Positions 2,590 to 59,140 of a DNA stretch of 62,959 nucleotides are shown here, one piece after another. The number at the start of each line of letters is the position of its first letter. Position 1 is the first letter of the stretch. Made by a program: the position numbers and the translations under genes. Source of the stretch: Candidatus Saccharimonadota bacterium (GTDB lineage Bacteria; Patescibacteriota; Saccharimonadia; Saccharimonadales; JAGQNJ01); contig DAISWO010000002.1 in NCBI GenBank assembly GCA_036826295.1, forward strand, positions 159,294 through 222,252. Reading direction: 5' to 3'. The notes under the pieces are model-generated. The model had not been told where the DNA came from and searched no databases. It saw nothing but the letters and a program-made list of their open reading frames with translations.

Positions 2590-2592
2590 AAA

Positions 2593-17035: not shown

Positions 17036-17043
17036 ACCAACAC

Positions 17044-17277: not shown

Positions 17278-17314
17278 CGTACTCTATTTTCGTTGTCAAA
17301 AGTGCCAAACACTA

Positions 17315-17389
17315 CTAACAGAGAGTTAGCAAAACTACTTATAATTTGTTATATTTGATAACAGATGGTTTGCTAACAATGTGTTAGCA
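17315..17389. promoter_or_regulatory. repeated palindromic operators between XRE gene and mod
   Basis: CTAAC-N5-GTTAG at 17315-29 and 17373-87; degenerate ATAAC-N5-GTTTG at 17358-72 directly adjacent to the second. Confidence 0.65.
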
Positions 17390-17410
17390 CATATAAGGAA
17401 GTAACAACAA

Positions 17411-19114: not shown

Positions 19115-21923
19115 AATAAATGCCACGCTCAATGACTTTCTGTTCAACCAAATAGAAAACGACCCTGCCTACATAGCGTGGCAAGCCGACTTTACTATTC
19201 CCGAATACGTTACCGACAATTTGAGTAAGACCCTGCGTGAATACCAAGTGATAGCCTTGAAGCACTTTATTTGGCTATATGAAACCGATAGAGCCAGAGC
19301 CAAGCACTTATTGTTCAATATGGCGACAGGTACAGGTAAAACGCTTGTAATGGCGTCTGTGGTGCTTTACCTGTATGCACAAGGCTATCGTAATTTCTTG
19401 TTTCTGGTTCATCAAATACAAATCAAAGACCAAGCACTAAAGAACTTTACCGATTATAAGTTTGAGAAGTACCTGTTCAATCCAAAAGGCGTAAGAATAA
19501 ACGGACGTAATGTAGCGGTCAAAGAAACAAAGAGCATAGCAGACGCAGACCGCAACGCTATAAACTTTATGTTTTTCAGCACCTCACTACTGTATAACCG
19601 ACTGCTTGAAGATAAAGAAAACGGACTTACAGCCCAAGATTTTGCCGACAATGATGTAGTGGTAATTGCCGATGAAGCCCATAGGCTCAACGTAGATACC
19701 AGAAGCAAAAAGAAAGCCGATATTGAAGAAGTACGAAACTGGGAAACTGCCGTTATGTCAGCAGTCAAAGCTCGTGAAGGAAACCTGCTACTTGAATATA
19801 CGGCAACTGTTGATTTAGCCAACCAAGCAATTCACGAAAAATACAAAGAAAAGTTAGTCCATCGCTACGACTTTTTAGAGTTCAACCGTGATGGGTATAG
19901 CAAGGACGTAAAGTTCTTATACAACAAAGAGGTTCATACCGAAGACCAAAAGCGTCTACTTATCATAAACGCCGTTGCTTTGAGCGAATATCGTAGGCTA
20001 CTTGCCGAGCGAGAGATGAAGGTAGATATGAAACCGATTGTACTTATAAAGTCAGTCAAAATTGCACAAAGCGAAGAAGACCGTGCGTTCTTTGACGCTG
20101 TTATTTCTAGCCTACGACCAGACGACTTGAACCGCTTGAAGGAACTTGCCAAGCAAAACATCAACCACGAACACGAAATACTGAACGATATGTTTGTGTG
20201 GCTAAAAGAGGCAAAAAACGGCTTTGTAACACAGGGCGACTGGGAAGGCTTGAATAAGTTTGTCAGCGAAATACGAGCCAGTTTTGCCCACGATAATACG
20301 CTCATATACAACAGCCAAAAGAAGGAAAAAGCCGAACTGTTGCCTTTGCTAGATAGCCCACGCAATACAATTCGTGCCATATTCAGTGTAAATGCCTTGA
20401 ACGAAGGTTGGGACGTATTGAGCCTATACGACATTATTCACTTTGATATTAGTGAAAGTAAAAAAGTTAGCCTTCAAGATATTCAGTTGATTGGTCGTGG
20501 TGCTAGGTATTTCCCTTATGAACTGCCACGCTCATACAAGCCAGATGATGACAGCAATAAACTATCACTTGATTTTGCCCAACGCAATTTGGAGTTTGAT
20601 ATAGACCGCCGAAAGTTTGATAATGCACCTTTTGAGCGTGGTCGTGTGCTGGAAACTTTTGTTTATCACTTCGTAAAGACTGGTATGTTCCTAGAAAACT
20701 TACAGCGTGATTTGCTTGGCGAAGGCATTATCAACGAAGGTGTTGAGCAAAAGACCATTACGCTAAAGACAAAGTTCCTTGAAAGTGAAACCTACAAAAA
20801 AGGCTTTGTATTGGTCAACCATACCATCAAGCGAACCAAGACAACCGAAGACGAGATTGACACTACTTTCAACCGCACTATCAAGGCAGGCTTGTATAAT
20901 CTACGAGCAAGAGGCTTATCTGACTATGAGCAAAATCAACAAATTGCGAGCCAGAAAACAAAAGTTATTCGTATTACCGATGAGTTTTTTGCCGAGCCTA
21001 TTATTCGCAAAGCATTGGTATCAGCCGAAGCCAACTTTTTCCGATACAACAATCTAGTTCATCACATACCCGACTTGAAGACGGTTGATGAACTGATAGA
21101 AAAGTACCTGCCGAAATACGAAATTACCTATACCTACGAAGACGGCAAAGATATTGGTCTACTGAACGCCCAAGAAAAACTACAACTACTTGTCGGTGCG
21201 ATACTGCCAGAAGTTCGCAGGCGTATAGACATTTATATGCCGAGAGAGGCAGGAAGTAACCAGTTTAGACCAGTATCGCTTTCCCAAGTGTTCGGCAAAG
21301 AAAAGAACATTTACTTGATGTCGTTCCCAAGTATTGACCTTACGACTGGCGAGAAAGTGTTCATAAGCACAGACGAGCGAGCCAAAGCTCAAAGCGACCA
21401 CGACAATCCTGATTTACAGTTCAATGTAAAAGGTGCTGATTGGTATGCGTATAGTGAAAACTATGGCACAAGCGAAGAAAAGAAGTTTGTAAAATACCTT
21501 GCAAGCCAGATTGACGACTTACACGCAAAATACAGTGGTTCGGAAGTATATCTAATTCGTAATGAACTAGACTACTGGCTATACAGTCTAAAAGATGGTC
21601 GTAGGTTCAGCCCAGACTATATGCTTATCATCAACGATGTAGTAAATCAGCAGTTGTATTACCAAGTCATTATTGAACCGAAGGGTGGACATATCATTGA
21701 ACAAGACGCTTGGAAGGAAGAAGCCTTGATAAGCCTGAACGATGACAGTGAAGTTGTGTTTGATACAAATGAAAACGACAAGCAGGCTTACAAAGAATAC
21801 TTGGCTGAAATGAGCAAGCACGGCTATAAAGAGATAAAGCCAATTGGCATAAAGTTCTATAACACTGACCCACGCCCCGAAAGCGAGTTTGCCCTAGATT
21901 TTGAGGCTAAATTGCTCGCCTAA
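19095..21923 (+). CDS. type III R-M restriction subunit (Res; SF2 helicase + nuclease)
   Basis: MATGTGKT, DEAH, EGWD, QLIGRGAR, C-terminal FSPDY...EPKG. Confidence 0.9.
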   Translation: MAKTKTKINATLNDFLFNQIENDPAYIAWQADFTIPEYVTDNLSKTLREYQVIALKHFIWLYETDRARAKHLLFNMATGTGKTLVMASVVLYLYAQGYRNFLFLVHQIQIKDQALKNFTDYKFEKYLFNPKGVRINGRNVAVKETKSIADADRNAINFMFFSTSLLYNRLLEDKENGLTAQDFADNDVVVIADEAHRLNVDTRSKKKADIEEVRNWETAVMSAVKAREGNLLLEYTATVDLANQAIHEKYKEKLVHRYDFLEFNRDGYSKDVKFLYNKEVHTEDQKRLLIINAVALSEYRRLLAEREMKVDMKPIVLIKSVKIAQSEEDRAFFDAVISSLRPDDLNRLKELAKQNINHEHEILNDMFVWLKEAKNGFVTQGDWEGLNKFVSEIRASFAHDNTLIYNSQKKEKAELLPLLDSPRNTIRAIFSVNALNEGWDVLSLYDIIHFDISESKKVSLQDIQLIGRGARYFPYELPRSYKPDDDSNKLSLDFAQRNLEFDIDRRKFDNAPFERGRVLETFVYHFVKTGMFLENLQRDLLGEGIINEGVEQKTITLKTKFLESETYKKGFVLVNHTIKRTKTTEDEIDTTFNRTIKAGLYNLRARGLSDYEQNQQIASQKTKVIRITDEFFAEPIIRKALVSAEANFFRYNNLVHHIPDLKTVDELIEKYLPKYEITYTYEDGKDIGLLNAQEKLQLLVGAILPEVRRRIDIYMPREAGSNQFRPVSLSQVFGKEKNIYLMSFPSIDLTTGEKVFISTDERAKAQSDHDNPDLQFNVKGADWYAYSENYGTSEEKKFVKYLASQIDDLHAKYSGSEVYLIRNELDYWLYSLKDGRRFSPDYMLIINDVVNQQLYYQVIIEPKGGHIIEQDAWKEEALISLNDDSEVVFDTNENDKQAYKEYLAEMSKHGYKEIKPIGIKFYNTDPRPESEFALDFEAKLLA

Positions 21924-45951: not shown

Positions 45952-46043
45952 GGAGAGGTGTCCGAGTGGTTGAAGGAGCACGCTTGGAAAGCGTGTATGT
46001 GAGGCAACTTGCATCGAGGGTTCGAATCCCTCTCTCTCCGCCA
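45952..46043 (+). tRNA. tRNA-Ser(GGA)
   Basis: GGAGAGG/TCTCTCC acceptor, CACGC-TT-GGA-AA-GCGTG anticodon arm, long variable arm, GGTTCGAATCC, encoded CCA. Confidence 0.97.
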
Positions 46044-46066
46044 AGAATAAAGTTCTTTTTTGACCC

Positions 46067-46109
46067 GTTCACCTAATGCCCTATATAGGGTAGGGTGAAC
46101 TTTTATTTT
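46067..46109 (+). terminator. element-supplied terminator for tRNA-Ser
   Basis: GTTCACC..TGCCCTA-TA-TAGGGTA-GGGTGAAC hairpin followed by TTTTATTTT. Confidence 0.7.
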
Positions 46110-46179
46110 CGGCTAAAATGTTATCTAAACGACGAAAAAAGCCATTCCCGTTCACATGGGCAGTAGGATTCGAACTTTA

Positions 46180-47478
46180 TTAGCTCAACTTTTTAGACCT
46201 ACGAGATCTTGCTACATATACCTTCTGATCTTCGAGGAATATTTCGCCAGTTACATATTGCAGAATCTCTCGTTTTTCTTCTTTAGACCCATGCTCTAGG
46301 ACATACTTTGCATACATTTTTAGATCTATGGCAGGTTTAGTTGTTGAGCCTTCTTTGTGTCCCAGAACTATGTTGAATCTGTCATATCGTTCTAATTCAT
46401 CCTTGAATTGCTTTTGGGCACCAATCTCATCAATTTCTAGGTTATCCACTAGAGCAAGGAGCTCTCGCATGAGATCAGCTTCTCTAACGTATGGCTGAAT
46501 GCAGTCGAGATCATTTGCTCTACCACAGTGATAGTAGACATAACGTCTGATCTCACCGGATTTAAGCTGTTTGATCTTTTCCTCGGCCGTAACACCTGTT
46601 TTACATACACCACACTTCAGCATCTTAGTGAAGCTGAACTCTTTACTACCTGCTGGTGCTTTCGGGGCTACGGTTAGCTGGATCTGCACTTTATCGAATA
46701 ATTCACGACTTATTAGGGGCTTGTGCTTGCCTTGATGCATTGTTGGCTTAGTTTTAGGGTATTTAAACTCTCCGTAATAAAAGGGGTTTCGAAGTGCCCG
46801 GAAAATGTGGCTAAGTACCAGACGTTTACCTTGCTTAGAGCGGAAATCAATATCATCTAGCCATCTTTTAACATCACGTCCTGTATAGGCGTTATTAGCA
46901 ACTCGTTCAAACATTTCCGTTATGATTGGCGCACGTTCATCGTCAATAATTATCTTTTCTTCGCCAAGACCATTGTTTAGGTATCCTATCGGAGCTTGAC
47001 CAGGACGCCAGCCGTTGGCTGCTTTATTGTGAAGCCCTCGAATAACATTCAGACCTCTGTTATCATTCTCTAGTTTTGCTTGTGATCCTAGAATCATTAG
47101 CAAGAATTTCTCATTTGGTGAGTTTGTGAAGGTCTGCCCGTGTGTTCTTATCTCAATAAGCTTGCCTTGATCCATCAAATCTACCAATATGCCTAGGTCT
47201 CCTGCGTTTCTGCTGAGTCTATCGGGAGCCCATGTCACAATTCCGTTGAAATATCCAAGTTGTATGTCTTTTATCAGTCGATTATAAACAGGTCTAGTGC
47301 CTGATTCTTTGGAAGAGTGGCTTTCTTTGCGAACTTCAACAATTTTTATGCCCCAGTGATCGGCCAGTAGCTCCATTTCTTTAATCTGTTGCTCGATTGA
47401 GAGAGCTTGACGTTCGTCTTGTTCTGACGATTTTCTGGCGTACAAACAGTACTTAAGTGGTTTCAGCTGGGGTGACAT
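46180..47478 (-). CDS. large serine recombinase (integrase)
   Basis: YARKSSE catalytic Ser, DRLSRN, recombinase domain, Zn ribbon CGVC...HC...C. Confidence 0.93.
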   Translation of the reverse strand: MSPQLKPLKYCLYARKSSEQDERQALSIEQQIKEMELLADHWGIKIVEVRKESHSSKESGTRPVYNRLIKDIQLGYFNGIVTWAPDRLSRNAGDLGILVDLMDQGKLIEIRTHGQTFTNSPNEKFLLMILGSQAKLENDNRGLNVIRGLHNKAANGWRPGQAPIGYLNNGLGEEKIIIDDERAPIITEMFERVANNAYTGRDVKRWLDDIDFRSKQGKRLVLSHIFRALRNPFYYGEFKYPKTKPTMHQGKHKPLISRELFDKVQIQLTVAPKAPAGSKEFSFTKMLKCGVCKTGVTAEEKIKQLKSGEIRRYVYYHCGRANDLDCIQPYVREADLMRELLALVDNLEIDEIGAQKQFKDELERYDRFNIVLGHKEGSTTKPAIDLKMYAKYVLEHGSKEEKREILQYVTGEIFLEDQKVYVARSRRSKKLS

Positions 47479-47578
47479 AGTAGTACAAAGGTACCAGTAA
47501 GTGTCACAAAGTCTAGGCCTATTTCACTTCCGCTTTGGATATTCTGATTGCTTGGTAAATAATGTATATGGAGGATAT

Positions 47579-48142
47579 ATGAAAACTATAACAATACAGA
47601 CAACAGTGTACGGTGAACCATCAACCCTAGAACTTATGGAGTTTGATGAGCTTGATAAGTTAAAATGGAAAGAACTCTTTGATTCTTGGAAAAAACTTAA
47701 ACTGGGAATGCGTGATTATAAATCACGAGAGCCAAACTTTCCTGAAGGCCTAAGTGAAAGTGCTTATTGTATCTGGTCTGGCTCGAAAAGATTTATTAAA
47801 GCTAGCGCAGGGACAAACGCATCATTTGTCACCTTCAATACCCAGACAAAAGAAGCTGAACAAATAAAAGCATGTAGCATTGATTCAGACTTAACTTCAT
47901 TTGGACCGACCTCAAAATGGGACAAATTAATATTCATGGATTTCTATGCTGACGGACTAGTAGATGGGTCCTTTAACGCGTACCAAATCCCAGACGAGTT
48001 AATCTACAATCACCAGATAAATAGAACTCAAACATTTAAAGATCAACAATTACAGGGAAGAAGACCAAGGCTATCTCTAAAAGATGTTATTGCTGAGAAT
48101 GATATTGAACCTATAGGAAAGAATGTAAAAATCTGGCTATAG
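47579..48142 (+). CDS. type II restriction endonuclease, Bsp6I-like
   Basis: REPNFPEGLSE, EQIKACSIDSDLTSFGP, QQLQGRRPR resemble the Bsp6I family as recalled; GGAGGA SD before 47579; faces a C5 MTase. Confidence 0.7.
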   Translation: MKTITIQTTVYGEPSTLELMEFDELDKLKWKELFDSWKKLKLGMRDYKSREPNFPEGLSESAYCIWSGSKRFIKASAGTNASFVTFNTQTKEAEQIKACSIDSDLTSFGPTSKWDKLIFMDFYADGLVDGSFNAYQIPDELIYNHQINRTQTFKDQQLQGRRPRLSLKDVIAENDIEPIGKNVKIWL

Positions 48143-49696
48143 GACTTTTAGCATTTGCTTCGCAATTCTCTTAATAACAGGGACAGTAACCGAATTACCA
48201 ACTTGTTTATATAGAGCCGAGTCAGCGATATCAGGTAGAACATAATTCTTTGGGTAGCCCTGTATTCTTAGGCATTCTTTTGGCGTTAGTTTTCTGATCC
48301 CTTTGCCGTCAAATATTATCGGTACGTTGTGTCCGCCCATCCCCATATTTGCAGTTAATGTTGGACAAACACCCTTTTTGTTTTTCCTTACATATTTTCT
48401 ACGCCACTGGTAAACTTCATTCTGCTCTGTAACATCATCCTTGATCTTTTCATATAGAGGTTTTCCATTGTAGTAATATTTTTCATCAACTTTTTTTTCA
48501 AGAATATCTTTAATGCTTTTTTCTAGTTTAATTGGGTCGGGGAACTCAAACGCTTCAGTTTTATTATGGTCTTTGAAGCCTACAATATAAATTCTCTCTC
48601 TGTTTTGAGGAACATTACCGTATTCCATGCTGTTCATAATTTTGTGTTTAATTGAATAGCCTAGATCTTTTAATGTTTCTTCAATAACTTTGAATGTATT
48701 CCCGCCATCGTGAGATTTAAGATTTTTTACGTTTTCCAATAAAAACCCTTCGGGTTTTCTTGCTTCGATAATTCTAGCTATATCAAAGAATAAATTACCT
48801 CTACCTTTTTTATCATCGAATCCGTGTCTGTATCCTGCTATCGAAAATGCCTGGCACGGAAAACCACCAAGCAGAAAATCAAATTCAGGCAAATCATCCA
48901 CTTTTATTTTGGTGATATCTTCTACAACTAATTTAGAATCCTTGAAATTCATATCATAGGTATATTTACATTTATCATCAAAGTCATTTGCGAATACTGT
49001 TTTAAATCCTTCATTTTCAAATCCAATCCTGATTCCACCAATACCTGCAAACAAATCCAATGTTCGCCACGTTTTTGTTCTCAATTGATCTTCCTTATCA
49101 TCATCTTGTTTATAATTCCTTCTTACTGACCAGACAACTCCCCTTACTTCAACTTCATTTCTGAATAAAGGCAATAGTTTTTGATTTGCTGGTTGAAGCT
49201 TAAATCTATTACCATCTCGATATAGTTTTTTGAGTGTGGCCCGATTATCATCGATTACTGCAACTACTGTTTGGCCATTTTGGGCTGATGTTTGTTTTTT
49301 TATAACCACAGTGTCGCCATCAAAAATGCCTTCGTCTATCATGCTATCGCCCTTAACCTTCAAAGCATAGAAAGTTCCTGAAGCAGGTAGTCCGGCCACT
49401 GCTACTTGCTCCTGATCAACTTCCTCGATCGCCTCAATAGGTTGCCCAGCTGTAATAGTACCTACGATTGGCACTTTGTCGCTCCTAGGACGATTGTCAG
49501 ACAGTTCGTATCCTTGGTAATTTTCAGACTTTTCTAGAAAACCTTGCCCTACTAATTTAGACAGGTGGCTATGTATTGTAGAGACTGACTTAAGACCTAG
49601 TCCCGATGATATTTCTGATAAAGTAGGGAATTCACCGTATTGATCCTTGTGCTTTTTAATAAAGTCTAAAACTTGGGTTTGTCTATTTGTGCTCAT
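48137..49696 (-). CDS. LexA repressor fused to C5-cytosine DNA methyltransferase
   Basis: Residues 1-~196: wHTH, Ala83-Gly84 cleavage site, Ser118 (GDSM), Lys156. Residues ~205-519: DLFAGIGG, GFPCQ, ENV, QNRER, GNSV. One uninterrupted frame. Confidence 0.9.
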   Translation of the reverse strand: MSTNRQTQVLDFIKKHKDQYGEFPTLSEISSGLGLKSVSTIHSHLSKLVGQGFLEKSENYQGYELSDNRPRSDKVPIVGTITAGQPIEAIEEVDQEQVAVAGLPASGTFYALKVKGDSMIDEGIFDGDTVVIKKQTSAQNGQTVVAVIDDNRATLKKLYRDGNRFKLQPANQKLLPLFRNEVEVRGVVWSVRRNYKQDDDKEDQLRTKTWRTLDLFAGIGGIRIGFENEGFKTVFANDFDDKCKYTYDMNFKDSKLVVEDITKIKVDDLPEFDFLLGGFPCQAFSIAGYRHGFDDKKGRGNLFFDIARIIEARKPEGFLLENVKNLKSHDGGNTFKVIEETLKDLGYSIKHKIMNSMEYGNVPQNRERIYIVGFKDHNKTEAFEFPDPIKLEKSIKDILEKKVDEKYYYNGKPLYEKIKDDVTEQNEVYQWRRKYVRKNKKGVCPTLTANMGMGGHNVPIIFDGKGIRKLTPKECLRIQGYPKNYVLPDIADSALYKQVGNSVTVPVIKRIAKQMLKVL

Positions 49697-49709
49697 ATTA
49701 TTAATATAT

Positions 49710-49727
49710 ACGAAAATACACGAAAAT
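49710..49727 (-). promoter_or_regulatory. direct repeat in lexA-MTase promoter (candidate operator)
   Basis: ACGAAAAT twice with 10-bp period, 13 nt upstream of the start codon. Confidence 0.45.
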
Positions 49728-49901
49728 GTAAGCTTTTCTATAATTCTATTGCTTTAGAGGAATTGAAAATAATTGCTATAGAAACAAAGAACAAGGTTTC
49801 ACAAAAACCTGAAATTTTCTTTAAGTAGTATAATTACACTCGAGGAGTACAGAAGAGCGGAGCAAATAGTTTATCAATAGCTCTAATTTACAAATTTACG
49901 T

Positions 49902-52022
49902 ATGAGAATCGATCTACACGCGCACACACAAAATTGTAAGGTTGGCGACGGAGATAAAAGGAATATCAGCCCTGAGCAATTCGTTAATAAAATGAAAAGC
50001 AACGGTGTTGGCATTTGCTCTATAACAAACCATAACAAATTCGACAATGATGAATACAAAAAAGTAATTGGTGCTGCTGGTGACTTAGTCGTGTTCCCTG
50101 GGATTGAGCTGGATGTGATGTTCGAAGGTGAAGAACGGCAAATAATCGTTGTAGCCAACCCCGAATTAGCGGATAAGTTCTACTCAGTTTTTGATGACGA
50201 ACCGGAGCGAGATCTTGATAATCACGTCCTGGAGTACGATGATTTCTTAGAAAAAGTAAATGAGTTTACTAACGACGAGATAGTAATTATTGCGCACTTC
50301 ATGAATAAAGCTAAGGGTTTCAAAGTTGAAGAAAGAAGCACCCTGTATTCTGACCTGTCTGACTATTCCCTCGTACTTGAAACAAGCAATTTACGATCTA
50401 TGGGTTTTGTAAACGGTCATATGGAAAAAATTTGCTTGATTGGCAGTGATGTAAAAGATTGGGATAAGTACAGCGGAGATGAGTTGCCAGAAATTAAATT
50501 TGGAATTGATTCCTTTGGTAAATTTTACGAACTTGCTAGTGACCCTGTAAACTTTGTTAAAAATTGTCTCGACGGCGCTCCTAAGCATGCGGTTTCTGTA
50601 GACGATGATGGCTCGTTAATAGATATATTCGAGGACGTAAATGTTATTTTTGGAGAGAAGGGCTCTGGGAAAACAGTCCTACTCAAGGATCGCATCCATC
50701 CGGGATTAAAAAGAATTGGCAAGAATACCGTGCTTCACCTCGGCGAACGATATGAAGAATACTATGAAAATATTATCAAAGATCATTCCACTGCCATTGA
50801 AATTGACTCAGAACTCCAATCGGAGATTTTGACCGAATTTGATAGCATTGTGGACTATCAAGAAGAGCCACACGATAATTTTATCAAAGACTATTTAGCA
50901 TATAAAAAGGATGATAATAAAAATAAACAAGCTAAGACAATAAATAAGAGAAATGCTTCCTTCTCAAGTGGTATTGGTGAAACCATTGAAAGACGAATCA
51001 GACAGGCTCAAAGTAACATCACGAGTATATCTGAAGTATCTGATATAAATCGTAAAATCGACAGAAGTCAGGAACTCAGAAGAGAAGCACTGGAGACAGA
51101 GCTTGTAGTCTTAAAAGAAGATGTACAAAGTAATGTGACAAGCTTCTTTAGAAATTACTTTGTTAATAACGGTACAGAAAGTTTACTTAGAGCCATTAAA
51201 GAAACAGTAAGAAAAGAAAGTGGCGTAATCTCGAAACCTACAAATATTGGCTTTTCGAAACTGGTCTCAAAGCGACTTGAAAGAACAAGATCTAACTTAT
51301 ATTTAACAAAGTCGTTAGAGGCCATAGGGCACAAGACATCTGTGCTCATTGGTGAATTACCAAAAAAAGGTAAGGTGCGTCTTGAAATTGAAATACAAGT
51401 TATGCCCCAAGGGTTTATTTGGTCTTCCGACTCTGTATTTGATAAAAATACAGTGAGAGAAAATAGAGAAATCTTAAGTAGAATCCATCAATTTTCACCC
51501 AATAATTTTCCAAACATTAATGATCACTTCAATAGTGAACATATATCGGGCGAACTTACCGGTGAAGATTTCGTAGATCAAGTAGTCAGAAAGAGTACCA
51601 AAATAAAGATTAAGAATAATGGTAGTTATCACCCCTCACCTGGAGAGAAGGCGATCCTCTCCATCACCGGTACGCTAGAATCCTACGATTATTCGTGTTA
51701 CCTTTTTGACGAGATCGAGAAAGGCTTAGGACACAAATACATAGCTGAGTACTTAATCCCACAAATCAAAAAACTCAGAGACAGGGGCAAAACTATCATA
51801 TTAACAACCCATGATGCGAACATAGCTGTTAGTACACTACCGAGCCAAACAATCTACTGTTCATATCCAGATGAAGAAATATACTATGAAGGCAACATGT
51901 ATTCAAATGAGCTAATCGGTATTAAGAGTGGCTCCAAGCTGAATTGGCTTGATGAAGCTATAGTTCACCTTGAAGGTGGTAATAAAATGTTTAGTAAACG
52001 GAGGAATATTTATGGAGCCTGA
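49902..52022 (+). CDS. PHP-domain phosphoesterase + ABC-type ATPase (Ppl-like defence protein)
   Basis: DLHAHT, TNHN, GIE, IAH, GSD; GEKGSGKT, SPGEK, LFDEIE, TTHDAN. Confidence 0.8.
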   Translation: MRIDLHAHTQNCKVGDGDKRNISPEQFVNKMKSNGVGICSITNHNKFDNDEYKKVIGAAGDLVVFPGIELDVMFEGEERQIIVVANPELADKFYSVFDDEPERDLDNHVLEYDDFLEKVNEFTNDEIVIIAHFMNKAKGFKVEERSTLYSDLSDYSLVLETSNLRSMGFVNGHMEKICLIGSDVKDWDKYSGDELPEIKFGIDSFGKFYELASDPVNFVKNCLDGAPKHAVSVDDDGSLIDIFEDVNVIFGEKGSGKTVLLKDRIHPGLKRIGKNTVLHLGERYEEYYENIIKDHSTAIEIDSELQSEILTEFDSIVDYQEEPHDNFIKDYLAYKKDDNKNKQAKTINKRNASFSSGIGETIERRIRQAQSNITSISEVSDINRKIDRSQELRREALETELVVLKEDVQSNVTSFFRNYFVNNGTESLLRAIKETVRKESGVISKPTNIGFSKLVSKRLERTRSNLYLTKSLEAIGHKTSVLIGELPKKGKVRLEIEIQVMPQGFIWSSDSVFDKNTVRENREILSRIHQFSPNNFPNINDHFNSEHISGELTGEDFVDQVVRKSTKIKIKNNGSYHPSPGEKAILSITGTLESYDYSCYLFDEIEKGLGHKYIAEYLIPQIKKLRDRGKTIILTTHDANIAVSTLPSQTIYCSYPDEEIYYEGNMYSNELIGIKSGSKLNWLDEAIVHLEGGNKMFSKRRNIYGA

Positions 52023-52368
52023 TGATGAATTAGAAACCAAGAAAATACTAGTAAAAATTAAGAGGCAGAGTCAAGGAGAGGAAGACGAAGCTGTTCAATT
52101 AGTTTTTGAAAAGATCGATGACAACAAGGATGTGGAGGTTGATTTATCAGATAGTGGCGTCGATGACATAAAGAAGCTTTTTGATTCAGTCTTTACGCTC
52201 ATAAATGACTCTAAGCAGTTATTAGAGTTTCAGCTTTCTGATGCGGAAAACGATTTATACTTTCAAGTTTCTCAGGAAGTTGTTTCACAGCTAAACACTG
52301 AAGTACAGGAATCTGAAGCTCACTTTAGAGAAATCTGGAACCTAACAGAAGAATTACAAGAAGACTGA
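52012..52368 (+). CDS. small acidic protein coupled to the PHP-ATPase
   Basis: GGAGGA SD, ATG at 52012 overlapping the upstream stop; 118 aa. Confidence 0.7.
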   Translation: MEPDDELETKKILVKIKRQSQGEEDEAVQLVFEKIDDNKDVEVDLSDSGVDDIKKLFDSVFTLINDSKQLLEFQLSDAENDLYFQVSQEVVSQLNTEVQESEAHFREIWNLTEELQED

Positions 52369-52394
52369 TTAGAAAAGTAGCTTCGCAACAGAGG

Positions 52395-52422
52395 TTAGAC
52401 CTGCTATACTGAGCAGGTCTAA
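52395..52422. terminator. hairpin after PHP-ATPase operon
   Basis: TTAGACCTGCT-N6-AGCAGGTCTAA perfect 11-bp stem; weak T tract. Confidence 0.5.
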
Positions 52423-52570
52423 ACCAATTATTGAGATATGAAAATATCTTGTTTTGAACAGATAAACCCATAAATGGGCATCCGTTCAAAAGCTATTTGG
52501 GTTTATCTCAGTAGTTGGTTTAGACACCTAGAGCGGGTGTCCTTTTATTTTCCCGCAGGAAGGATAAATA

Positions 52571-53668
52571 ATGGCAATAATAATTTCCGAAAACGGCAAG
52601 AACGCAAAGAAACTAGAATCTGCTGGCTTTGGACCAGAAGACAATCTCCAGAAGTTTATTACAGATAATCCTGAGACTGTTCCGGTATACGATATCCGTG
52701 AAGATATCCGGCTATTGATTCTGGCTCGTGAATTTCCAACTAACAGCGGACCAATAGACGCACTTGGAGTCGACCAAGACGGCACAATCTACATCATTGA
52801 GACCAAACTCTATAAAAACCCCGACAAACGCCTCGTAATAGCTCAGGCCTTAGACTATGGAGCATCAATGTGGCGACATGTTACAGATTTCGATGACTTT
52901 ACTCATAGACTAGAAGGCAAGGTACAGCAACAGTTCAACATGAGCCTGCGAGACAAATTAGAAGATTTCTTTGGCATCGATGACGAAGCCGTCTCTACGC
53001 TATTACAAAACGTTCAAGATAATCTCAGTGCTGGCAAATTCAAATTCGTAGTTTTAATGGACCAACTGCACGATCGGCTCAAAGACCTGATCGTCTTTAT
53101 TAACCAGAACAGTCAGTTTGATGTATTTGCCGTAGAACTAAAGTACTACAAACACGAAAAATATGAGATCACTATCCCTAAGCTATTTGGGGCTGAAGTT
53201 AAGAAAGATGTGGTTTCTACTAAGTCTAGTTCTGGTAAACGTCGCAAGTGGGACGAACAGTCATACTGGGAGGAAGTAGCGAACAATCTTGATGCTCAGA
53301 AAGCCAAAGCACTAAGAACCTTTTACGATTGGTCACTCGCTAAAGCTGATAAAGTTACGTGGGGTACAGGTGCTTCCAGGGGCTCTTTCAACCCAATATT
53401 CGAGCGCATATCTCCAATATCCTTCTGCTCCGTTTTTACTGATGGTTCAGTTCAAATAAGCTACGGCTATCTACCGGCAGAAGAAGATATTGAAATTCGT
53501 AAACGCTTGCGCGATACGTTGGCAAAACATGTAACTGTTCCTGAAGTTACAGACGTAAAAGATGAAGCTCTGAAATCTACCTACAAATCGATACCAGCCG
53601 AATACGTTGAAAAGAACGTAGACAAAATCATTGCGGCACTCGAAGAATTTACAGGTAAAACCCTGTAG
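52571..53668 (+). CDS. NucS/EndoMS-like PD-(D/E)xK endonuclease domain protein
   Basis: E..LQ..I, GPIDALGVD..GTIYIIETK, QALDY; separate C-terminal domain. Confidence 0.7.
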   Translation: MAIIISENGKNAKKLESAGFGPEDNLQKFITDNPETVPVYDIREDIRLLILAREFPTNSGPIDALGVDQDGTIYIIETKLYKNPDKRLVIAQALDYGASMWRHVTDFDDFTHRLEGKVQQQFNMSLRDKLEDFFGIDDEAVSTLLQNVQDNLSAGKFKFVVLMDQLHDRLKDLIVFINQNSQFDVFAVELKYYKHEKYEITIPKLFGAEVKKDVVSTKSSSGKRRKWDEQSYWEEVANNLDAQKAKALRTFYDWSLAKADKVTWGTGASRGSFNPIFERISPISFCSVFTDGSVQISYGYLPAEEDIEIRKRLRDTLAKHVTVPEVTDVKDEALKSTYKSIPAEYVEKNVDKIIAALEEFTGKTL

Positions 53669-55193
53669 ACGAACCGAAGAACTCGTCATCCGAGGCTGTC
53701 GCTACGTTGTAACGGCGACTTCTGGTGCGAGGGCTGCGATCGAAAACAGAGCCTTTTACAGGTCCCGTATGAAAGCCAGGGATATTGTTTTTCTGTTCCA
53801 TCATGTAGATGATACCTAGTGTTAAAGCATCAAGCAGATCGTCTCGTTCTACTCCGAAGCCAATAACTTGTTGCAGCAACTTTTTACAACCCTCTTGAGG
53901 GAACTGGACTGTTCCGTTAAGGATCCAAAAAGATGCTACCTGTAGGCGCTCTTCTTTATCCCGACCATTGAGTGGTATAGCTTCGGCTCGCATATTCTCT
54001 TGGCTTAACATTTCGATGATTGCTCGTTGCATACCAACATCTTCAATGTAGATATCGGCAGAGGTATGGCGTGACTTAAGCGAAACGATGTCCTTAACGG
54101 TTTCGCTGTAAAGGTTACGTTTGTTGATCGGGTAAGGGTAAACGTAGATCTTGGCATCTTTGCCGTAACCGTGTTTTTCCATTACAACAATGGCTGTATA
54201 GTCGGCGGACGTTTTCTTGGAGATTGCTAGGTCTACACAAATGGCAATGCGATATGAACCACCAACCAGTTGTGGCGGTATTGCTTCGTAGTAGGTGATG
54301 TTCTCGGGTTTAACGATCTGCATGTTGTCTGGCAAGATTTTCAGTAGGTACTCTCGGTAGTAGGCACGTTCGCTGGGGGCTTCCTTTTTTTCTCGTTCAA
54401 CAGCTTCGGGTGTTGGATACTTTCCAGGCCAGATGCATACGCCAGCATCGTTAATCAGGGGGTATTCTTTGAACACGAACCGCTCGGGTTGTCTTTCACT
54501 AAAAGCTTTCATCCGCATCATTAGTGAATCGGTGTGTAGTAGGTTTCCGATCAGTACAAACTTAGTGCTCTGATCACCAACAGGTAGTATCTCACTGGTG
54601 TACCAATCAAAGGTTTTCTCTCGACCTTCACTAGTTTTTACCGACTGTAAGTCCTCCACATCGTCAGCAATTACTAGGTCTGGACGGTGTGACCCATGAC
54701 GGGTGCCACGAATACTTTGCTCGCTAGATACAGCACTGATACGAGCACCGTATTTTGGTAACACCAGCGACATCGAACCCCATTCGTCGCTAGTTTCTTT
54801 TAGTGGCCCGAAATCATTACGTAATAATTCGTTACTGTCGAACTCTTGTTTAGCGTTGGCGAGGTGTTTTCGGGCTTGGACTTGGGTTTGGCTAGCAATC
54901 AGGGCGTATTTCTTTTCTTGTTTGCCTAGAATTGCCCACATTAGAAAGAAGGTGGTTACAATGCTACTTTTGCCACTACCTCTAAAGCTAACAATGCCGA
55001 GGTGTCGTATAGACGGATCTTCTAACATCGCATACATCTGTTGCTGAAAAGGGGCAGTTTGGTACTCAAAATAGTCCGGGAAGTAGATGTGGGCAAAGTT
55101 ATAGACGCTTTCGCGGGCTAGCTTGACGCGAACACTGCGTTTAGTTTGAATCTCTTGCCATAGCTTTGGTGAAAAGGGTGATTCGGGATTCAT
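53649..55193 (-). CDS. phage terminase large subunit
   Basis: FRGSGKSS Walker A, IRGTRH..RPDLVIADDVED, VDLA..ADYTA and RDDLLDAL nuclease aspartates. Confidence 0.88.
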   Translation of the reverse strand: MNPESPFSPKLWQEIQTKRSVRVKLARESVYNFAHIYFPDYFEYQTAPFQQQMYAMLEDPSIRHLGIVSFRGSGKSSIVTTFFLMWAILGKQEKKYALIASQTQVQARKHLANAKQEFDSNELLRNDFGPLKETSDEWGSMSLVLPKYGARISAVSSEQSIRGTRHGSHRPDLVIADDVEDLQSVKTSEGREKTFDWYTSEILPVGDQSTKFVLIGNLLHTDSLMMRMKAFSERQPERFVFKEYPLINDAGVCIWPGKYPTPEAVEREKKEAPSERAYYREYLLKILPDNMQIVKPENITYYEAIPPQLVGGSYRIAICVDLAISKKTSADYTAIVVMEKHGYGKDAKIYVYPYPINKRNLYSETVKDIVSLKSRHTSADIYIEDVGMQRAIIEMLSQENMRAEAIPLNGRDKEERLQVASFWILNGTVQFPQEGCKKLLQQVIGFGVERDDLLDALTLGIIYMMEQKNNIPGFHTGPVKGSVFDRSPRTRSRRYNVATASDDEFFGSSTGFYL

Positions 55194-55597
55194 TGCGATA
55201 CCTCGCTCTTACTAAGTAACAATCCAGCATTCTTTAGAGCCTTTTCAACTAACTCCGTCTGTTCTGTAGTTAGCTCTTCGGTTTTATGGGTAATCCGACC
55301 ATCGACTCTAATACGTGCCTCGTAGGCAGGGTGGTGGTGCTTGAGCCAAAAGATTATCGCTGTCATGTTCTGGTCTTTTATGGCTGCGATTAACTGGCTC
55401 TCGGCCATATCATTAATCCGGCCAGCACTTTCTACGATGGCTTCATCACAAGCTGTAGCAAAATCTTCATCATCCTTGCGCCACCTATAGTAGGTGGCGC
55501 GCGACATGCCTATTTGTTTGCAAACAACTTCAACAATCGGGGTTTTTTGCAGACGTTCGATCATTTCCTTCTTAGTCTTTTCTTGGTTACGACTCAT
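55190..55597 (-). CDS. putative terminase small subunit (HTH)
   Basis: CKQIGMSRATYYRWRKDDEDF, AIIFWLKHH; overlaps the terL start. Confidence 0.72.
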   Translation of the reverse strand: MSRNQEKTKKEMIERLQKTPIVEVVCKQIGMSRATYYRWRKDDEDFATACDEAIVESAGRINDMAESQLIAAIKDQNMTAIIFWLKHHHPAYEARIRVDGRITHKTEELTTEQTELVEKALKNAGLLLSKSEVSQ

Positions 55598-56919
55598 GAC
55601 AACTTCTCCCGCTTAAGACCAGTTAGTTTTTCCCAGCGTTTCATGATTACCTCCGCGTACACCGGGCTTTTCTCCATTAAATAGCAACGACGTTTGAGTA
55701 TTGTTGCTCCAATCAACGTAGACCCTGAGCCCCCAAAAGTCTCTATTACAATATCTCCCCGTTTAGTCAATACCTTTATGTAGGGAATCAGGATGGGAAC
55801 GGGCTTAGTACCGAAAATTATGCCTTGCCCGCTGTGCTTTTCATCTTCGGCTGAGTGTTCAATGAAATCAGTCGGCTGATACTTCTTGCCCTTAGCATGC
55901 GGCTCCCACTGTGGTTTACCGGAAATAGCATACAGAGCTGTTTCGTACTCCTCTTGCAGTCCGTCCGGCTCTTTATCGTGGTTGTAGGGCACTGTACCTT
56001 TTGCACCAACAACTGCAATATCGTACTTCGAAAAAAATTTGTACTTTGCAGCGAAGTTTTGATGCCTGTTGGCCAAATGCCAGACGATCATGTTTTTTAC
56101 TTTCCAGTGTTTTTCCATCTCGCCCCATATAGTCCGTAAATTTTTCCAATTTTCGTAGACTATGATGCTGAAATCTTCTTTAGCTACTTTGGCAACGTTT
56201 GCCATCCAAAGTTCGGTGAAGTTGTCTGGCAGTTCGTCAGTTTCTAGGTAGCGACGGTTGCGCTTAGCACCAAAGCCAGTTACGGCTTTTCCGTGTCGTT
56301 TAGCACCTAGATAATCCAAAATGTAGGGTGGGTCGCACAGGCAAAGTGATGCTTGTTCGCCGTTCATGAGTTTCAGAACGTCTGCTTCAACTGTGGAATC
56401 ACCAACCATAAGACGGCTATCGCCTAATTTGTAGATATCACCTTTTTTGGCGGTGATTTTCTTGATATCGAGTTTCTTTAGCTCTTTATCAAGATCGAAT
56501 GTCTCTGGCTCCACCAGATCGACGTCGAAGATGGTGTCTAGCTCTTCACTGGTGAATCCAACATCATCGAGCAGTTTTTCATCGAACTGACCAAGTAACT
56601 CCCAGTTCCATTCGCCTTGATTGCGGTTCAATCGAAGATTGAGTTCTTTTTCCTTGGCTTCGTCCGGAATGTTGATATAGACCACCGGAACTTCCTTGAA
56701 GCCCAAGTCTTTGGCTACTCTGAGCCTAAAGTGACCGCCAATCACAATGTTTTTTCGGCTCTTAGCGCTGTTTACCAAAAGTGGGTCAACTAGACCAAAG
56801 CGTTTGATACTCTCCGTTAATCCTTCTATTGCTTCTGTGCTCCAGCTACGAGGGTTGTACTTCGAGGCTTTGAGCTCACTGATCTTTATTTGTTTGATAT
56901 TTAGTTGTTCTTGAGACAT
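55594..56919 (-). CDS. ParB-like domain + N4/N6 DNA methyltransferase
   Basis: YNPR...FGLVDPL...GGHFR; CDPPY; ETFGGSGSTL. Confidence 0.88.
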   Translation of the reverse strand: MSQEQLNIKQIKISELKASKYNPRSWSTEAIEGLTESIKRFGLVDPLLVNSAKSRKNIVIGGHFRLRVAKDLGFKEVPVVYINIPDEAKEKELNLRLNRNQGEWNWELLGQFDEKLLDDVGFTSEELDTIFDVDLVEPETFDLDKELKKLDIKKITAKKGDIYKLGDSRLMVGDSTVEADVLKLMNGEQASLCLCDPPYILDYLGAKRHGKAVTGFGAKRNRRYLETDELPDNFTELWMANVAKVAKEDFSIIVYENWKNLRTIWGEMEKHWKVKNMIVWHLANRHQNFAAKYKFFSKYDIAVVGAKGTVPYNHDKEPDGLQEEYETALYAISGKPQWEPHAKGKKYQPTDFIEHSAEDEKHSGQGIIFGTKPVPILIPYIKVLTKRGDIVIETFGGSGSTLIGATILKRRCYLMEKSPVYAEVIMKRWEKLTGLKREKLS

Positions 56920-56978
56920 GGTTTTCTCCTTCCGTCTCGTGGTTTATCCCACGATACGTCCAGAGTTTTTGTTAAAAC

Positions 56979-57036
56979 AAAAAGACGACCATGAGAAATA
57001 AACCGTTAATGATTTATTTCCTTGAGTCGTCTTTTT
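56979..57036 (-). terminator. long hairpin in the leader of the ParB-MTase/terS/terL operon
   Basis: AAAAAGACGAC/GTCGTCTTTTT outer stem, GAAATAAA/TTTATTTC inner stem; followed by T-rich run on the minus strand. Confidence 0.6.
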
Positions 57037-57192
57037 AAGCAGACTTATTTATTCTCTTAGAAATTGCTGTTAATTAAATGTTCGAGCGTGTGCTCACTGA
57101 AAGAGTAACACACCTAAAACCTACAATGCAATATTACAAACTCTTGTAAACCCTAGCAAACTCTATCTGTTATTGAGCTATAATAAGACATT

Positions 57193-57549
57193 ATGAGAAC
57201 AAAATTTGGCATTCCTCAAGATCAACTAGATGAAATTGTAACTCGCGATATTGATTGCATTTACTGCCACAAAACCATGATTCTACCCTATGACGTTAAT
57301 AACCGTTCCGATTCTGCCACTATAGAGCACCTGAACCATCGAGCAGATTGGGATAGTGTTAGGGATTTCGTTAGCAATGGGAAGCAAGTACATTCAATTA
57401 TTGGGTTATGCTGCGGGGGTTGCAACTCAAGTCGAAGGGATCTGCCGCTTCTTGCTTGGTTTAACGCCGAATATTGTAAATCCAGAAAGATTGATGAAGA
57501 CACGGTGTCCGATGTGGTTCGTAGTTATATCTCAGAATACGAAAAGTAA
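57193..57549 (+). CDS. small HNH endonuclease
   Basis: CIYC...ATIEHL...CCGGCNSSR. Confidence 0.8.
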   Translation: MRTKFGIPQDQLDEIVTRDIDCIYCHKTMILPYDVNNRSDSATIEHLNHRADWDSVRDFVSNGKQVHSIIGLCCGGCNSSRRDLPLLAWFNAEYCKSRKIDEDTVSDVVRSYISEYEK

Positions 57550-57597
57550 TCCTGCTTGGAAATCTAGAAACGAACTCTGAAGATGTAAAATTAGGTT

Positions 57598-58791
57598 ATG
57601 TACACTCACCTTAAAGAACGTCAATTATACGAAGACATTTATGATCGCCACACTGTGGAAGATGCCCGGCGAGGTATGGTTCATTACGAAAAGTTCCACG
57701 CTGATTTTGAAAAGAAACTCCCGAAAGACGACAAGATTGACCGACCCGGTAATGCACTTCTGCTGAATGTGTTTTACATGCAAACAGTCGGTAATGGCTT
57801 ACTCGATCGCTACGAAAAACGAGAGCAAAGTATCAACGACTGGATGGCAAAAGACGAAGCCAAAGACGAGCAGATTGCTGGTGCTAGGTTGGGACAAGAA
57901 CCATACTGCCACCACTGTAAAAAGCAAGGTCTGCGGATTACTGATAAGTCCCTCATGCACCGTGGCAAAACCTACAACATCGGTGACCCCGAAGAAGTGC
58001 TCTTTATGCTCCACTGTACACACTGCGACAAGAACAGCGCTATTTGGGAAGACGGCACCGCTTGGAAGCCAAGGCCAACGCTTTGCCCGAAGTGTAAAGC
58101 TGAAATGAAGCACAAGGTAACCAAATCAAAGAAAGCGCTGACTTTTACCTATACCTGCCCATCGTGTAGCCATAGCTATAAGGACAGAACTGATCTTAGT
58201 GACAAGAAAGAAAAACCAGATCCTGAATACGACCAAGACAAAGTGACTTATTGCCTTTTAGATAAAGAGTTTCGCGATAGGATGATAGCTATCAAGCAAG
58301 GTTTTGAGGATATGGCTCGGCTCGGTAAAGAGGTTAAGGAAAAGGAAGATAACAAGCACATATACGATGCGGTGAAGGAGCTTAAGAAGCCAAAGATCGC
58401 CGAGCTTACACCATTGCTTGCTCCAACTCTCGAAAAAGCTGGTTATATTGAGTTCCACCTAGATAAACCGGAAATAGGTCGTGATGTCTTCATTGGTTTT
58501 AGCTGCTTAGATAGTAAATCCGACCGTGAAGACTACGACAGTAGAAAAACTCTCCAGAAGCTAGTTAAAAAGACTCTGGAGGATACCAATTGGCGGTTGA
58601 TGAGTGATGGAGTGTCCTATCGGCTTGGTTATTTGAATGGCAGGCTCCGAGCTTACGAACGAAAGGACGATTTAAAGGAGTTAGTTATCAAGAGCAAGAA
58701 GTTGAAACCCAAGCAAGAACCTAGCAAGGCTGACCTAAAAAAGAACGCCTACACCATCAAAGACAAAGATGGCAACGACATACTCCTATGA
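57598..58791 (+). CDS. hypothetical multi-zinc-ribbon protein
   Basis: Four CxxC pairs: CHHC, CTHC, CPKC, CPSC. Confidence 0.75.
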   Translation: MYTHLKERQLYEDIYDRHTVEDARRGMVHYEKFHADFEKKLPKDDKIDRPGNALLLNVFYMQTVGNGLLDRYEKREQSINDWMAKDEAKDEQIAGARLGQEPYCHHCKKQGLRITDKSLMHRGKTYNIGDPEEVLFMLHCTHCDKNSAIWEDGTAWKPRPTLCPKCKAEMKHKVTKSKKALTFTYTCPSCSHSYKDRTDLSDKKEKPDPEYDQDKVTYCLLDKEFRDRMIAIKQGFEDMARLGKEVKEKEDNKHIYDAVKELKKPKIAELTPLLAPTLEKAGYIEFHLDKPEIGRDVFIGFSCLDSKSDREDYDSRKTLQKLVKKTLEDTNWRLMSDGVSYRLGYLNGRLRAYERKDDLKELVIKSKKLKPKQEPSKADLKKNAYTIKDKDGNDILL

Positions 58792-58966
58792 TGTTACCCC
58801 TGTTAGCGACAAAATAATGCGACACGGTCATTTATGGTGTGCCGTGTCTCATTTGTCTCGTTTTTATCTGTAAAGTGCTAAAATATGAGACAAGGTCTGA
58901 GTTCCAGACCCGTGTGTTCCGCCAAACTATGACAGCCATTTGTGGCTGTTTTAGTTTGGCGTAACA

Positions 58967-59101
58967 GGAGGTGGGTTCGAACCCGATAGGGTGAGAAATG
59001 CCCAGAATGGCATTTCGCAAGGAAATCTTCTGATGGCAACTTGTTGCCAATCATGAAGTTTCGGGCCTGCGGAACGTAGGCGAATCCCTCTCTCTCCGCC
59101 A
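58967..59101 (+). other. multi-hairpin element closed by the attR tRNA 3' end
   Basis: GGAGGTGGGTTCG (58967-79) pairs with 59081-93; three internal hairpins; ends CCA. Confidence 0.45.
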
Positions 59102-59140
59102 ATAAAATACCCCCATCTGACTAGGTGGGGTTATTTTATT
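59101..59140 (+). terminator. native tRNA-Ser terminator after attR
   Basis: AATAAAATACCCCCATCT/AGGTGGGGTTATTTTATT hairpin. Confidence 0.75.

Follow-up and report, generated by a model that had tools for sequence, protein, structure and literature searches.

A tRNA-Ser island of Candidatus Saccharibacteria with a complete terminase and no recognisable capsid genes, and its family of possible phage satellites

Among the phage satellites described so far are some with a small terminase subunit (TerS) only, some with a cos site only and some with complete heads. Classical PICIs (phage-inducible chromosomal islands) and Staphylococcus aureus pathogenicity islands (SaPIs) encode TerS only or no terminase subunit, use the large subunit (TerL) of the helper, integrate by means of a tyrosine integrase, are under Stl/AlpA-type control and bring a primase-replicase with its ori. 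Here we analyse a stretch of 62,959 nucleotides (the window; contig DAISWO010000002.1, positions 159,294 to 222,252) from a genome of Candidatus Saccharibacteria, which belong to the candidate phyla radiation (CPR), and in it a 13.06-kb mobile island that is integrated in a tRNA-Ser(GGA) gene. The island resembles PICIs and SaPIs in being about 13 kb long and att-flanked, in having phage-derived packaging genes and defence or accessory cargo, and in having no virion genes, but differs from them in its own full-length TerL, its large serine recombinase (LSR) as integrase and the lack of a recognisable replication module.

Capsid-forming PICIs (cf-PICIs) come closest in packaging, as they encode their own TerS, TerL and HNH protein, so that packaging specificity and motor are satellite-encoded as in the window element (in which the HNH assignment is tentative). 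Beyond these, cf-PICIs have genes for capsid, portal, protease and head-tail connectors, so that tails are all they steal (Alqurainy et al., bioRxiv 10.1101/2022.09.08.507074), whereas the island and its relatives described below have no capsid, portal, protease or connector genes, integrate with an LSR and reside in CPR hosts. With the PICI-like elements (PLEs) of Vibrio cholerae (PMC6002521) the islands share the large serine recombinase and the protection of the host; with the PICMIs (phage-inducible chromosomal minimalist islands) of Vibrionaceae (PMC10803314) they share minimalism and host protection, and the abstract states that PICMIs do not encode capsid-remodelling genes. PLEs and PICMIs, both from Gammaproteobacteria hosts, are not described as encoding a large terminase, and no sequence similarity of the element to either was detected. 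A PLE would combine its LSR with RepA/ori and ICP1-specific hijack genes; the element has the LSR, but it lacks a replication initiator and shows no PHROG or Pfam link to PLE genes, and PLE membership was rejected. Marine VEIMEs (virion-encapsidated integrative mobile elements) and tycheposons likewise integrate and come from the environment; serine recombinases, TerS homologues, HNH proteins and restriction-modification (R-M) cargo occur in some of them, and they are packaged as concatemers in helper-size capsids. They are reported with TerS homologues and "motor-like ATPases" but not with a canonical TerS+TerL operon, and have other hosts and mostly tyrosine integrases (PMC9618062). The element is not a PICI, a cf-PICI, a PLE or a defective prophage, as each of these four classes fails on a defining feature that we tested.

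A full packaging enzyme without portal or capsid was not found described in the literature searched and is apparently undescribed. A December 2025 preprint that lists satellite classes has none with a terminase holoenzyme and no capsid, and another 2025 preprint states that satellites for viruses of CPR or DPANN organisms are not known to exist. Surveys of CPR "prophages" have relied on automated callers, which would flag such islands because of their terminase hallmark.

The island and its packaging operon

The features that define the element and its packaging operon are as follows (window coordinates).

45952-46043, plus strand: tRNA-Ser(GGA) gene, the integration target (ARAGORN; Rfam tRNA, 54.7 bits)
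46023-46047: attL, with the 22-nt exact core CGAATCCCTCTCTCTCCGCCAA at 46023-46044 and the first diverging base at 46045
46180-47478, minus strand: LSR, 432 aa, reading towards attL
53649-55193, minus strand: TerL, 514 aa, with intact ATPase and nuclease centres (phrog_38, 1.8e-78; PF17289, 1.4e-6)
55190-55597, minus strand: TerS, 135 aa, with an N-terminal helix-turn-helix (HTH) domain (PF13022, 6.3e-7)
55594-56919, minus strand: ParB_N domain fused to an N6/N4 methyltransferase (ParB-MTase), first gene of the operon (phrog_498, 6.8e-81)
59081-59105: attR, second copy of the 22-nt core, exact at 59081-59102

The att sites form a direct repeat in which 24 of 25 positions are identical, the first 22 without exception, at a spacing of 13,058 bp; by our arithmetic a 22-mer repeat is expected by chance about 5e-6 times in 13.6 kb. 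The repeat is a copy of the 3' end of tRNA-Ser(GGA), so that sequence borne on the element reconstitutes the end of the gene. attR is followed at 59111-59130 by a GC hairpin and a T-run, as would be the case if the original end of the tRNA gene, displaced to this side, had kept its native terminator. The genes outside the repeats are ordinary host genes: to the left a MacB/FtsX ABC transporter, to the right DUF1295. Between the repeats the list of open reading frames (ORFs) accounts for 11 genes, all intact, none of which matches a structural, lytic or replicative family in Pfam, PHROGs, PADLOC or NCBIfam, and neither pseudogenes nor structural remnants were found there with the ORF list, Pfam and PHROGs. 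Scans with Rfam and for promoters and terminators returned, apart from the tRNA, ordinary terminators only.

The LSR contains Resolvase (PF00239, 6.7e-21), Recombinase (PF07508, 6.2e-14) and Zn_ribbon_recom (PF13408, 6.2e-6) domains, has YARKSSEQ as its catalytic-serine motif and matches the phrog_95 integrase at 4.6e-59. The three packaging genes overlap by 4 nt at each junction, as in translational coupling. ParB-MTase matches PF02195 (9.8e-14) and PF01555 (2.4e-18), TerS matches seven TerS PHROGs (best phrog_4044, 2.1e-9), and TerL also matches a terminase in the Protein Data Bank (PDB; 8dgc, 4.8e-5). TerL is of the Terminase_6 type; its closest counterpart among GenBank phages is at most 27.5% identical, and Mu-like headful packagers are among the best matches there, at 26.5%. 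ParB-MTase is 31-34% identical to methyltransferases (MTases) of temperate Staphylococcus, Streptococcus and Bacillus phages. The same domain fusion occurs in Staphylococcus phage Sazerac, the Streptococcus Javan prophages and Bacillus phage vB_BtS_B83, and in the Staphylococcus and Bacillus records it lies near the record end and adjoins packaging genes, as it does here; those enzymes sit in complete phages, unlike that of the element, and their role in packaging is putative.

In an alignment of 28 TerLs of 43-90% identity, the Walker A motif FRGSGKS (R71, K75, S76), the Walker B residues D177, D178, E180 and D181 and the nuclease acidic residues D321, D412, D451, D452 and D455 are invariant. 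Among relatives at 83-89% identity dN is 0.07-0.12 by the Nei-Gojobori (NG86) method; dS is saturated in nearly every pair, so that only a bound and the single computable omega of 0.048 can be used. These sequence data argue that TerL is under strong purifying selection and not under the relaxed selection that a preliminary description of this DNA had considered. The same description had reported both att sites, an intact serine recombinase, a coupled ParB-MTase/terS/terL operon and, with every gene accounted for, no structural or replication gene; all of this stands, with firm family matches for both terminase subunits.

A recurrent family of capsid-less islands and its sister phages

The exact TerL is found on five assembled contigs, one of which, a Logan contig of 12.3 kb (L001, SRR2107211), equals window positions 46015-58312. 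Relatives at 84-89% TerL identity occur in four metagenome-assembled genomes (MAGs) of Candidatus Saccharibacteria/Saccharimonadales, and when TerL was searched by sequence, the clusters below E 1e-10 numbered more than 3,799. Those with a name belong to Ca. Saccharimonadales and, more distantly, to Ca. Nealsonbacteria DGGOD1a and a Parcubacteria bacterium. Scanning IMG/VR with exact TerL peptides returned no close relative, while an alignment-based scan found 351 relatives, of which 80 loci were fetched. We call a locus module-positive if it contains ParB-MTase and TerL together with TerS and/or an LSR but no portal, as judged by reciprocal BLAST and clustering. Saccharibacteria and Parcubacteria MAGs, IMG/VR and contig look-ups together supplied 56 non-redundant module-positive loci.

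Across all clustered loci, TerS is present in 48 and a TerL-linked LSR homologue (44-56% identity) in 40. In 36 loci the LSR gene comes after that of TerL and has the same orientation, at a distance below 300 bp in 17, of 0.3-3 kb in 10 and of 3-8.3 kb in 9, a spread that marks the TerL-LSR junction as a cargo hotspot. In the window element this hotspot is filled with five genes over 6.2 kb. Eight contexts were studied one by one, those of TerLs at 83, 83, 64, 49, 46 and 48% identity and of two Parcubacteria-type copies: all have ParB-MTase, TerS and TerL, none has a portal or capsid gene, and an LSR is nearby in most of the long ones. In relatives a second MTase of about 250 aa often stands between ParB-MTase and TerS (about 135 aa). 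The family backbone consists of ParB-MTase, TerS, TerL and the LSR, to which a second MTase (before TerS) and a second TerL (after the first) may be added, and the hotspot, mostly between TerL and LSR, is filled with defence systems.

The cargo differs from context to context: SMODS+SLATT, Fic and type I R-M; toxin-antitoxin pairs; TIR and caspase; SNF2/PLD with a type IIG MTase and HATPase; AlwI R-M with RadC/Dam and an ISL3 insertion. Genes like those of cyclic-oligonucleotide-based antiphage signalling systems (CBASS) and reverse transcriptases are also part of the repertoire. The latter occur in five islands, among them L019 (11375-12490; phrog_1423, 3.2e-112; RVT_1), and are probably defence enzymes of the retron, DRT (defence-associated reverse transcriptase) or Abi (abortive infection) type. 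Two loci (L004, 11612-15898; L015, 15783-19117) carry copper/cation homeostasis genes instead of defence genes, namely a CsoR-type repressor, DUF305, DUF4396, a cupredoxin, DUF3105 and cation efflux. In seven loci an S24 repressor gene is oriented divergently to the operon. The presence elsewhere of the same backbone with variable cargo, which the preliminary description had predicted, is borne out by these 56 loci, the cargo being different in each context studied.

Virion proteins that family-level annotation might hide were sought among the 123 non-backbone ORFs of 270-620 aa in the 56 module-positive loci. The commonest are HsdM (9), HsdS (8), reverse transcriptases (5), C5/N6 MTases, AAA_15/AAA_21 and PIF1/Dda helicases, and among the families with at least two members, to which the listing extends, none is a portal or capsid family. 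We are highly confident that the window element belongs to this recurrent family of capsid-less terminase and LSR islands.

Several members are more elaborate. Tandem full-length TerL paralogues occur in L015 (10001-13043), L020 (594-3752), L025 (2405-5564), L028 (3035-6318), L031 (1620-4813) and L034 (3809-6938); they are about 42-46% identical to the window TerL, both L015 copies match phrog_38, and the second copies form their own subclade in the TerL tree, which speaks for an old duplication. Two module copies, 9-37 kb apart, lie on one contig in 3300032737_000190 (L023 and L033), 3300033402_000781 (L053 and L054), 3300014205_009253 (L056 and L037) and L091, which points to tandem or multiple islands per genome. 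On a Parcubacteria-type contig (L128) the stretch just upstream of the module (4670-6847) encodes a fusion of an AEP-type primase with a DEAD helicase, possibly a replication module of some family members. No att repeats were found in L004, L013, L023, L033, L054 or the tandem L056/L037 contig, and L019 gave a doubtful 13-mer only; the LSR att cores of these relatives are probably too short for repeat detection.

Loci whose TerL is 37-40% identical, mostly without an LSR, are ordinary phages. In these the gene immediately after that of TerL encodes a portal-MuF fusion (phrog_2662, 9.8e-120), and those of a protease/scaffold and an HK97-type major capsid protein (MCP; phrog_10, 5.7e-90) come next. 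One of them, L093, has ParB-MTase, TerS and TerL in the order of the islands and then portal, protease and MCP, so that the island backbone is clearly phage-derived. The LSR or cargo of the islands stands where these siphovirus-like phages have the genes for portal-MuF, protease/scaffold, HK97 MCP and head-tail proteins; the window proteins show no similarity to the structural proteins of the sister phages. In a neighbour-joining tree of 92 TerLs all portal- or MCP-linked sequences form one clade, and the capsid-less ones fall outside it in several deep and diverse lineages. The L093 portal is annotated from a Ca. Paceibacterota MAG; Minisyncoccus archaeiphilus and Ca. Campbellbacteria have homologues of it, and many of the contigs are 30-36 kb long. 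The sister clade therefore includes CPR-linked phages or prophages, which are natural helper candidates, and on these sequence grounds this type of phage is the probable evolutionary source and a candidate helper of the islands.

The satellite reading and its alternatives

The element has no capsid, portal or tail gene of its own and possesses att sites and an integration module, as satellites do. We propose that the family consists of phage satellites that bring their own complete terminase and are packaged in helper capsids, a reading to which we give an even chance; its wider form, in which capsid-less, ParB-methylase-bearing terminase-holoenzyme satellites of Saccharibacteria and Parcubacteria, and thus CPR-wide, parasitise the procapsids of CPR siphovirus-like phages, we rate slightly short of even. 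The preliminary description had proposed a distinct satellite design that supplies its own motor to helper capsids. Of this, the headless TerS+TerL design is now seen in 56 loci, and the use of helper capsids we continue to infer.

The cycle would start with an SOS signal, sensed by a LexA/S24 domain here and by stand-alone S24 repressors in relatives, or with infection by a helper, either of which would derepress the packaging operon. The LSR would excise the island and TerS would recognise an island-specific pac or cos site, upon which TerL would cut the DNA and dock on the procapsid portal of a siphovirus-like CPR phage, either co-resident or infecting, that belongs to the sister TerL clade and has a genome of about 30-36 kb. 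ParB-MTase would methylate the DNA before or during packaging, perhaps protectively. The helper virion would then deliver the island DNA, which the LSR would reinsert into tRNA-Ser, and the host would be protected both by the diversion of procapsids and by the cargo (R-M pair, PHP-ATPase and NucS-like protein, described below). We infer induction, excision, pac/cos recognition, docking on a foreign portal, delivery and the identity of the helper alike.

If this is true, episymbiotic ultra-small bacteria would have in these islands their first satellite system, and a case of nested parasitism of satellite, phage, epibiont and host bacterium. The islands would be a major vehicle of defence islands in genomes below 1 Mb, in organisms whose phage biology is almost unexplored, and the compatibility of TerL and portal would be open to exploitation across genomes. 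Many "viral contigs" and "prophages" called in CPR genomes on the strength of a terminase would then not be viruses. The conserved backbone provides a search key for such islands and for new defence systems in their hotspot.

A number of observations weigh against the satellite reading. No replication gene is recognisable in the window element (Pfam, PHROGs, NCBIfam), nor is a recombination directionality factor, so that packageable concatemers or headfuls would have to arise by other means, possibly by in-situ packaging akin to lateral transduction or through replication by the helper. To serve a satellite, this TerL has to match the portal of a foreign phage. This genome has been linked to no helper, nothing phage-like or structural is present elsewhere in the 63-kb window, and no circular or terminally redundant contig was found among all loci checked. 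The HNH and Zn-ribbon genes of the element are not family-wide. As to mobility in situ, L001 starts with the first 31-mer that contains the element-specific base 46045 and its right end falls within the Zn-ribbon gene, which suggests assembly-graph branches at attL and in that highly conserved gene. The start fits the coexistence in that sample of occupied and unoccupied, or differently occupied, tRNA-Ser sites, and is a weak pointer to it; co-occurring strains that share the tRNA sequence explain the attL branch equally well. A search of metagenome contigs with the right-flank DUF1295 did not recover the empty site, giving relatives of at most 49% identity, none adjoining tRNA-Ser.

Among the alternatives, an unlikely one is that of a defence island whose terminase has been exapted as a decoy or poison, which would sequester procapsids or cut the concatemers of invading phages, the island itself moving by its LSR after horizontal gene transfer. 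Saccharibacteria perform natural transformation, cargo across the family is overwhelmingly defence-related, and the lack of replication genes in the element and of a detected circular form agrees with such a life. Known satellites, moreover, do interfere with the packaging of their helpers, as exemplified by Ppi of SaPIs and by PLE; interference and transfer are, on the other hand, not mutually exclusive. Exaptation as a decoy accounts less well for an operon kept whole, coupled and in phage order, with the DNA-recognition subunit and the packaging-adjacent MTase included, and for a TerL in which ATPase and nuclease centres are both invariant. The non-defensive copper/cation cargo of L004 and L015 also suits a general vehicle better.

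The missing replication and excision-control genes can alternatively be accommodated by a split system resembling gene transfer agents (GTAs) or lateral transduction, with capsid and tail genes elsewhere in the genome or in a resident prophage and in-situ packaging from a pac site that moves the island together with adjacent chromosome. The contigs with two modules (L023/L033, L053/L054, L037/L056 and L091) and the Terminase_6-type TerL with its Mu-like headful packagers among the best GenBank matches would fit here. We nevertheless consider such a system improbable, as the island is att-bounded, has an intact LSR and its counterparts occupy different loci in different genomes, which together mark an independent mobile unit, and as the window contains no structural genes.

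That the element is a one-off trimmed prophage, its structural genes lost here and the remainder kept for defence, was the alternative offered in the preliminary description, and is now very improbable. The gene order is indeed that of real phages such as L093, and automated tools do place such contigs in viral catalogues. Yet a recognised portal or capsid is present in none of the 56 module-positive loci; the closest TerL relatives (83-89%), which might have turned out to be full prophages, are no exception. The LSR directly takes the position of the portal in 17 loci, the capsid-less TerLs are deep, diverse and apart from the capsid-linked clade, and TerL is under apparent strong purifying selection with no pseudogenes or remnants between the att sites. 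A trimmed prophage is not tenable for an architecture without capsid that is so ancient, so diverse and so well conserved. The class of decaying prophages was rejected likewise, all ORFs being intact and the closest relatives also without structural genes. Finally, an autonomous very small virus with an unrecognisable capsid protein (for instance the Zn-ribbon or NucS-like protein) is scarcely credible even though three proteins have no firm annotation (the 397-aa Zn-ribbon, 118-aa HNH-like and 118-aa acidic proteins), because the model of the Zn-ribbon protein resembles neither a capsid nor a portal fold, that protein also occurs beside terminase-free type IV secretion system (T4SS) and R-M islands, the unannotated coding capacity is too small for head, portal and tail, and TerL-type packaging is, to our knowledge, known only with portal-bearing HK97-fold capsids.

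Cargo, control region and accessory genes

The remaining features of the island are listed below.

47501-48142, plus strand: Bsp6I-type type II restriction endonuclease (REase; PF09504, 6.8e-12; PADLOC REase_II, 1.9e-25)
48137-49696, minus strand: LexA-like repressor (HTH and S24 autopeptidase) fused to a C5 MTase (PF00145, 1.2e-93)
49902-52022, plus strand: PHP-domain protein with an ABC/AAA_21-type ATPase, 706 aa, defence candidate (PADLOC PDC-M49A)
52012-52368, plus strand: small acidic protein, 118 aa as called, in an ORF that opens at 51970
52571-53668, plus strand: PDC-S11/NucS-like protein of PD-(D/E)XK type (PADLOC PDC-S11, 1.1e-16; NucS weak)
56920-57192, no strand: divergent control region with nested palindromes (sequence, palindrome scan)
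57193-57549, plus strand: HNH-like zinc-finger protein, 118 aa, tentative (phrog_9545, 3.2e-4; phrog_2214, 4.7e-3)
57598-58791, plus strand: orphan Zn-ribbon protein, 397 aa (homologues, AlphaFold2 model)

Three defence-like modules had been noted in the preliminary description, one of which is now firm: the R-M pair is the only firmly identified defence system in the element, and the PHP-ATPase and NucS-like proteins remain candidates. REase and C5 MTase are adjacent and convergent, as in a Bsp6I-type type II R-M system, and the LexA-MTase fusion is the cognate MTase of the pair; the REase is likely to start at ATG 47579, giving 187 aa (gene call on L001). The LexA part (PF00717, 9.1e-26; PF01726, 3.3e-12; TIGR00498 lexA, 4.7e-47) has in translation the AG cleavage site, the GDSM serine and the LKKL lysine, motifs from which it is predicted to be cleavage-competent. 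It is the only S24 repressor-like domain of the element, while relatives have stand-alone S24 repressors, and the fusion could make the activity or expression of the MTase, or control of the whole element, SOS-responsive.

PHP-ATPase matches PDC-M49A (2.3e-15) over residues 2-705 and, weakly, AriA and mad3 in PADLOC, with PF02811 and PF13304 below cut-off. The acidic ORF overlaps the 3' end of its gene and has no family match in Pfam, PHROGs, PADLOC or NCBIfam; its product is presumed to be a partner of the ATPase. The NucS-like gene converges on that of TerL with a 20-nt overlap, and such a PDC-S11/NucS-like gene recurs beside the terminase module in about 7 loci: homologues of 48-55% identity adjoin the module in L007, L037, L058, L064 and L074, and in L128 a NucS_C gene is found there.

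Upstream of the ParB-MTase start a palindrome, TTTTTGTTAAAACAAAAA, is found at 56966, and nested with it a hairpin of about 57 nt, AAAAGACGAC...GTCGTCTTTT, around 56980-57036, that encloses GAAATAAA...TTTATTTC. From their sequence and position these palindromes (56966-57037) are a candidate operator, bidirectional terminator or pac/cos packaging site. A palindrome scan for operator motifs common to the intergenic regions of the element returned nothing convincing.

The HNH identity of the ORF earlier described as a small HNH protein is weakly supported, by the two PHROG matches listed above and by the motif C22xxC25...E45-H-L-N-H49...C74xxC77-N78 (CxxC...EHLNH...CxxCN), read by eye. It has no Pfam, NCBIfam, PDB or GenBank-phage match and no similarity to the HNH protein of L015, it is not conserved in the family, and its single-sequence AlphaFold2 model (pLDDT 37.7) is unusable. 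The Zn-ribbon protein exists as noted before, but is not specific to the backbone because its homologues also adjoin T4SS and R-M islands. These homologues (845 clusters, 67-83% identity) have a fixed length of 395-398 aa. The protein begins with a helical hairpin, continues with two or three Cys4 ribbons and ends in an alpha/beta domain; comparison of its AlphaFold2 model (pLDDT 73) with PDB folds gave no match (best E 0.1). Homologues lie beside a type IV secretion cluster in L096 (10001-11191) and beside an MmeI/T5orf172 island in L098 (10001-11188), with no terminase within 10 kb in either. The gene thus sits at the edge of three kinds of island, terminase, T4SS and MmeI/T5orf172, and looks like a general mobile-element-associated gene of Saccharibacteria. 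The L096 cluster next to it (770-9892), on a Saccharibacteria-type contig of 1.04 Mb, is conjugation-like, with VirB4/TraG-like ATPases, TrbL, a TrbC pilin and an M23 peptidase, and suggests elements resembling integrative and conjugative elements in the phylum.

Elsewhere in the window, a tRNA-Asn gene (16377-16451) is followed by a type III-like R-M pair (region 16377-21923), in which the MTase is of the N6_N4 type (17411-19114, 567 aa) and its partner is a ResIII/SNF2 helicase-nuclease (19095-21923, 942 aa). The pair may represent a second island linked to a tRNA gene; a search for att repeats within 10 kb gave none.

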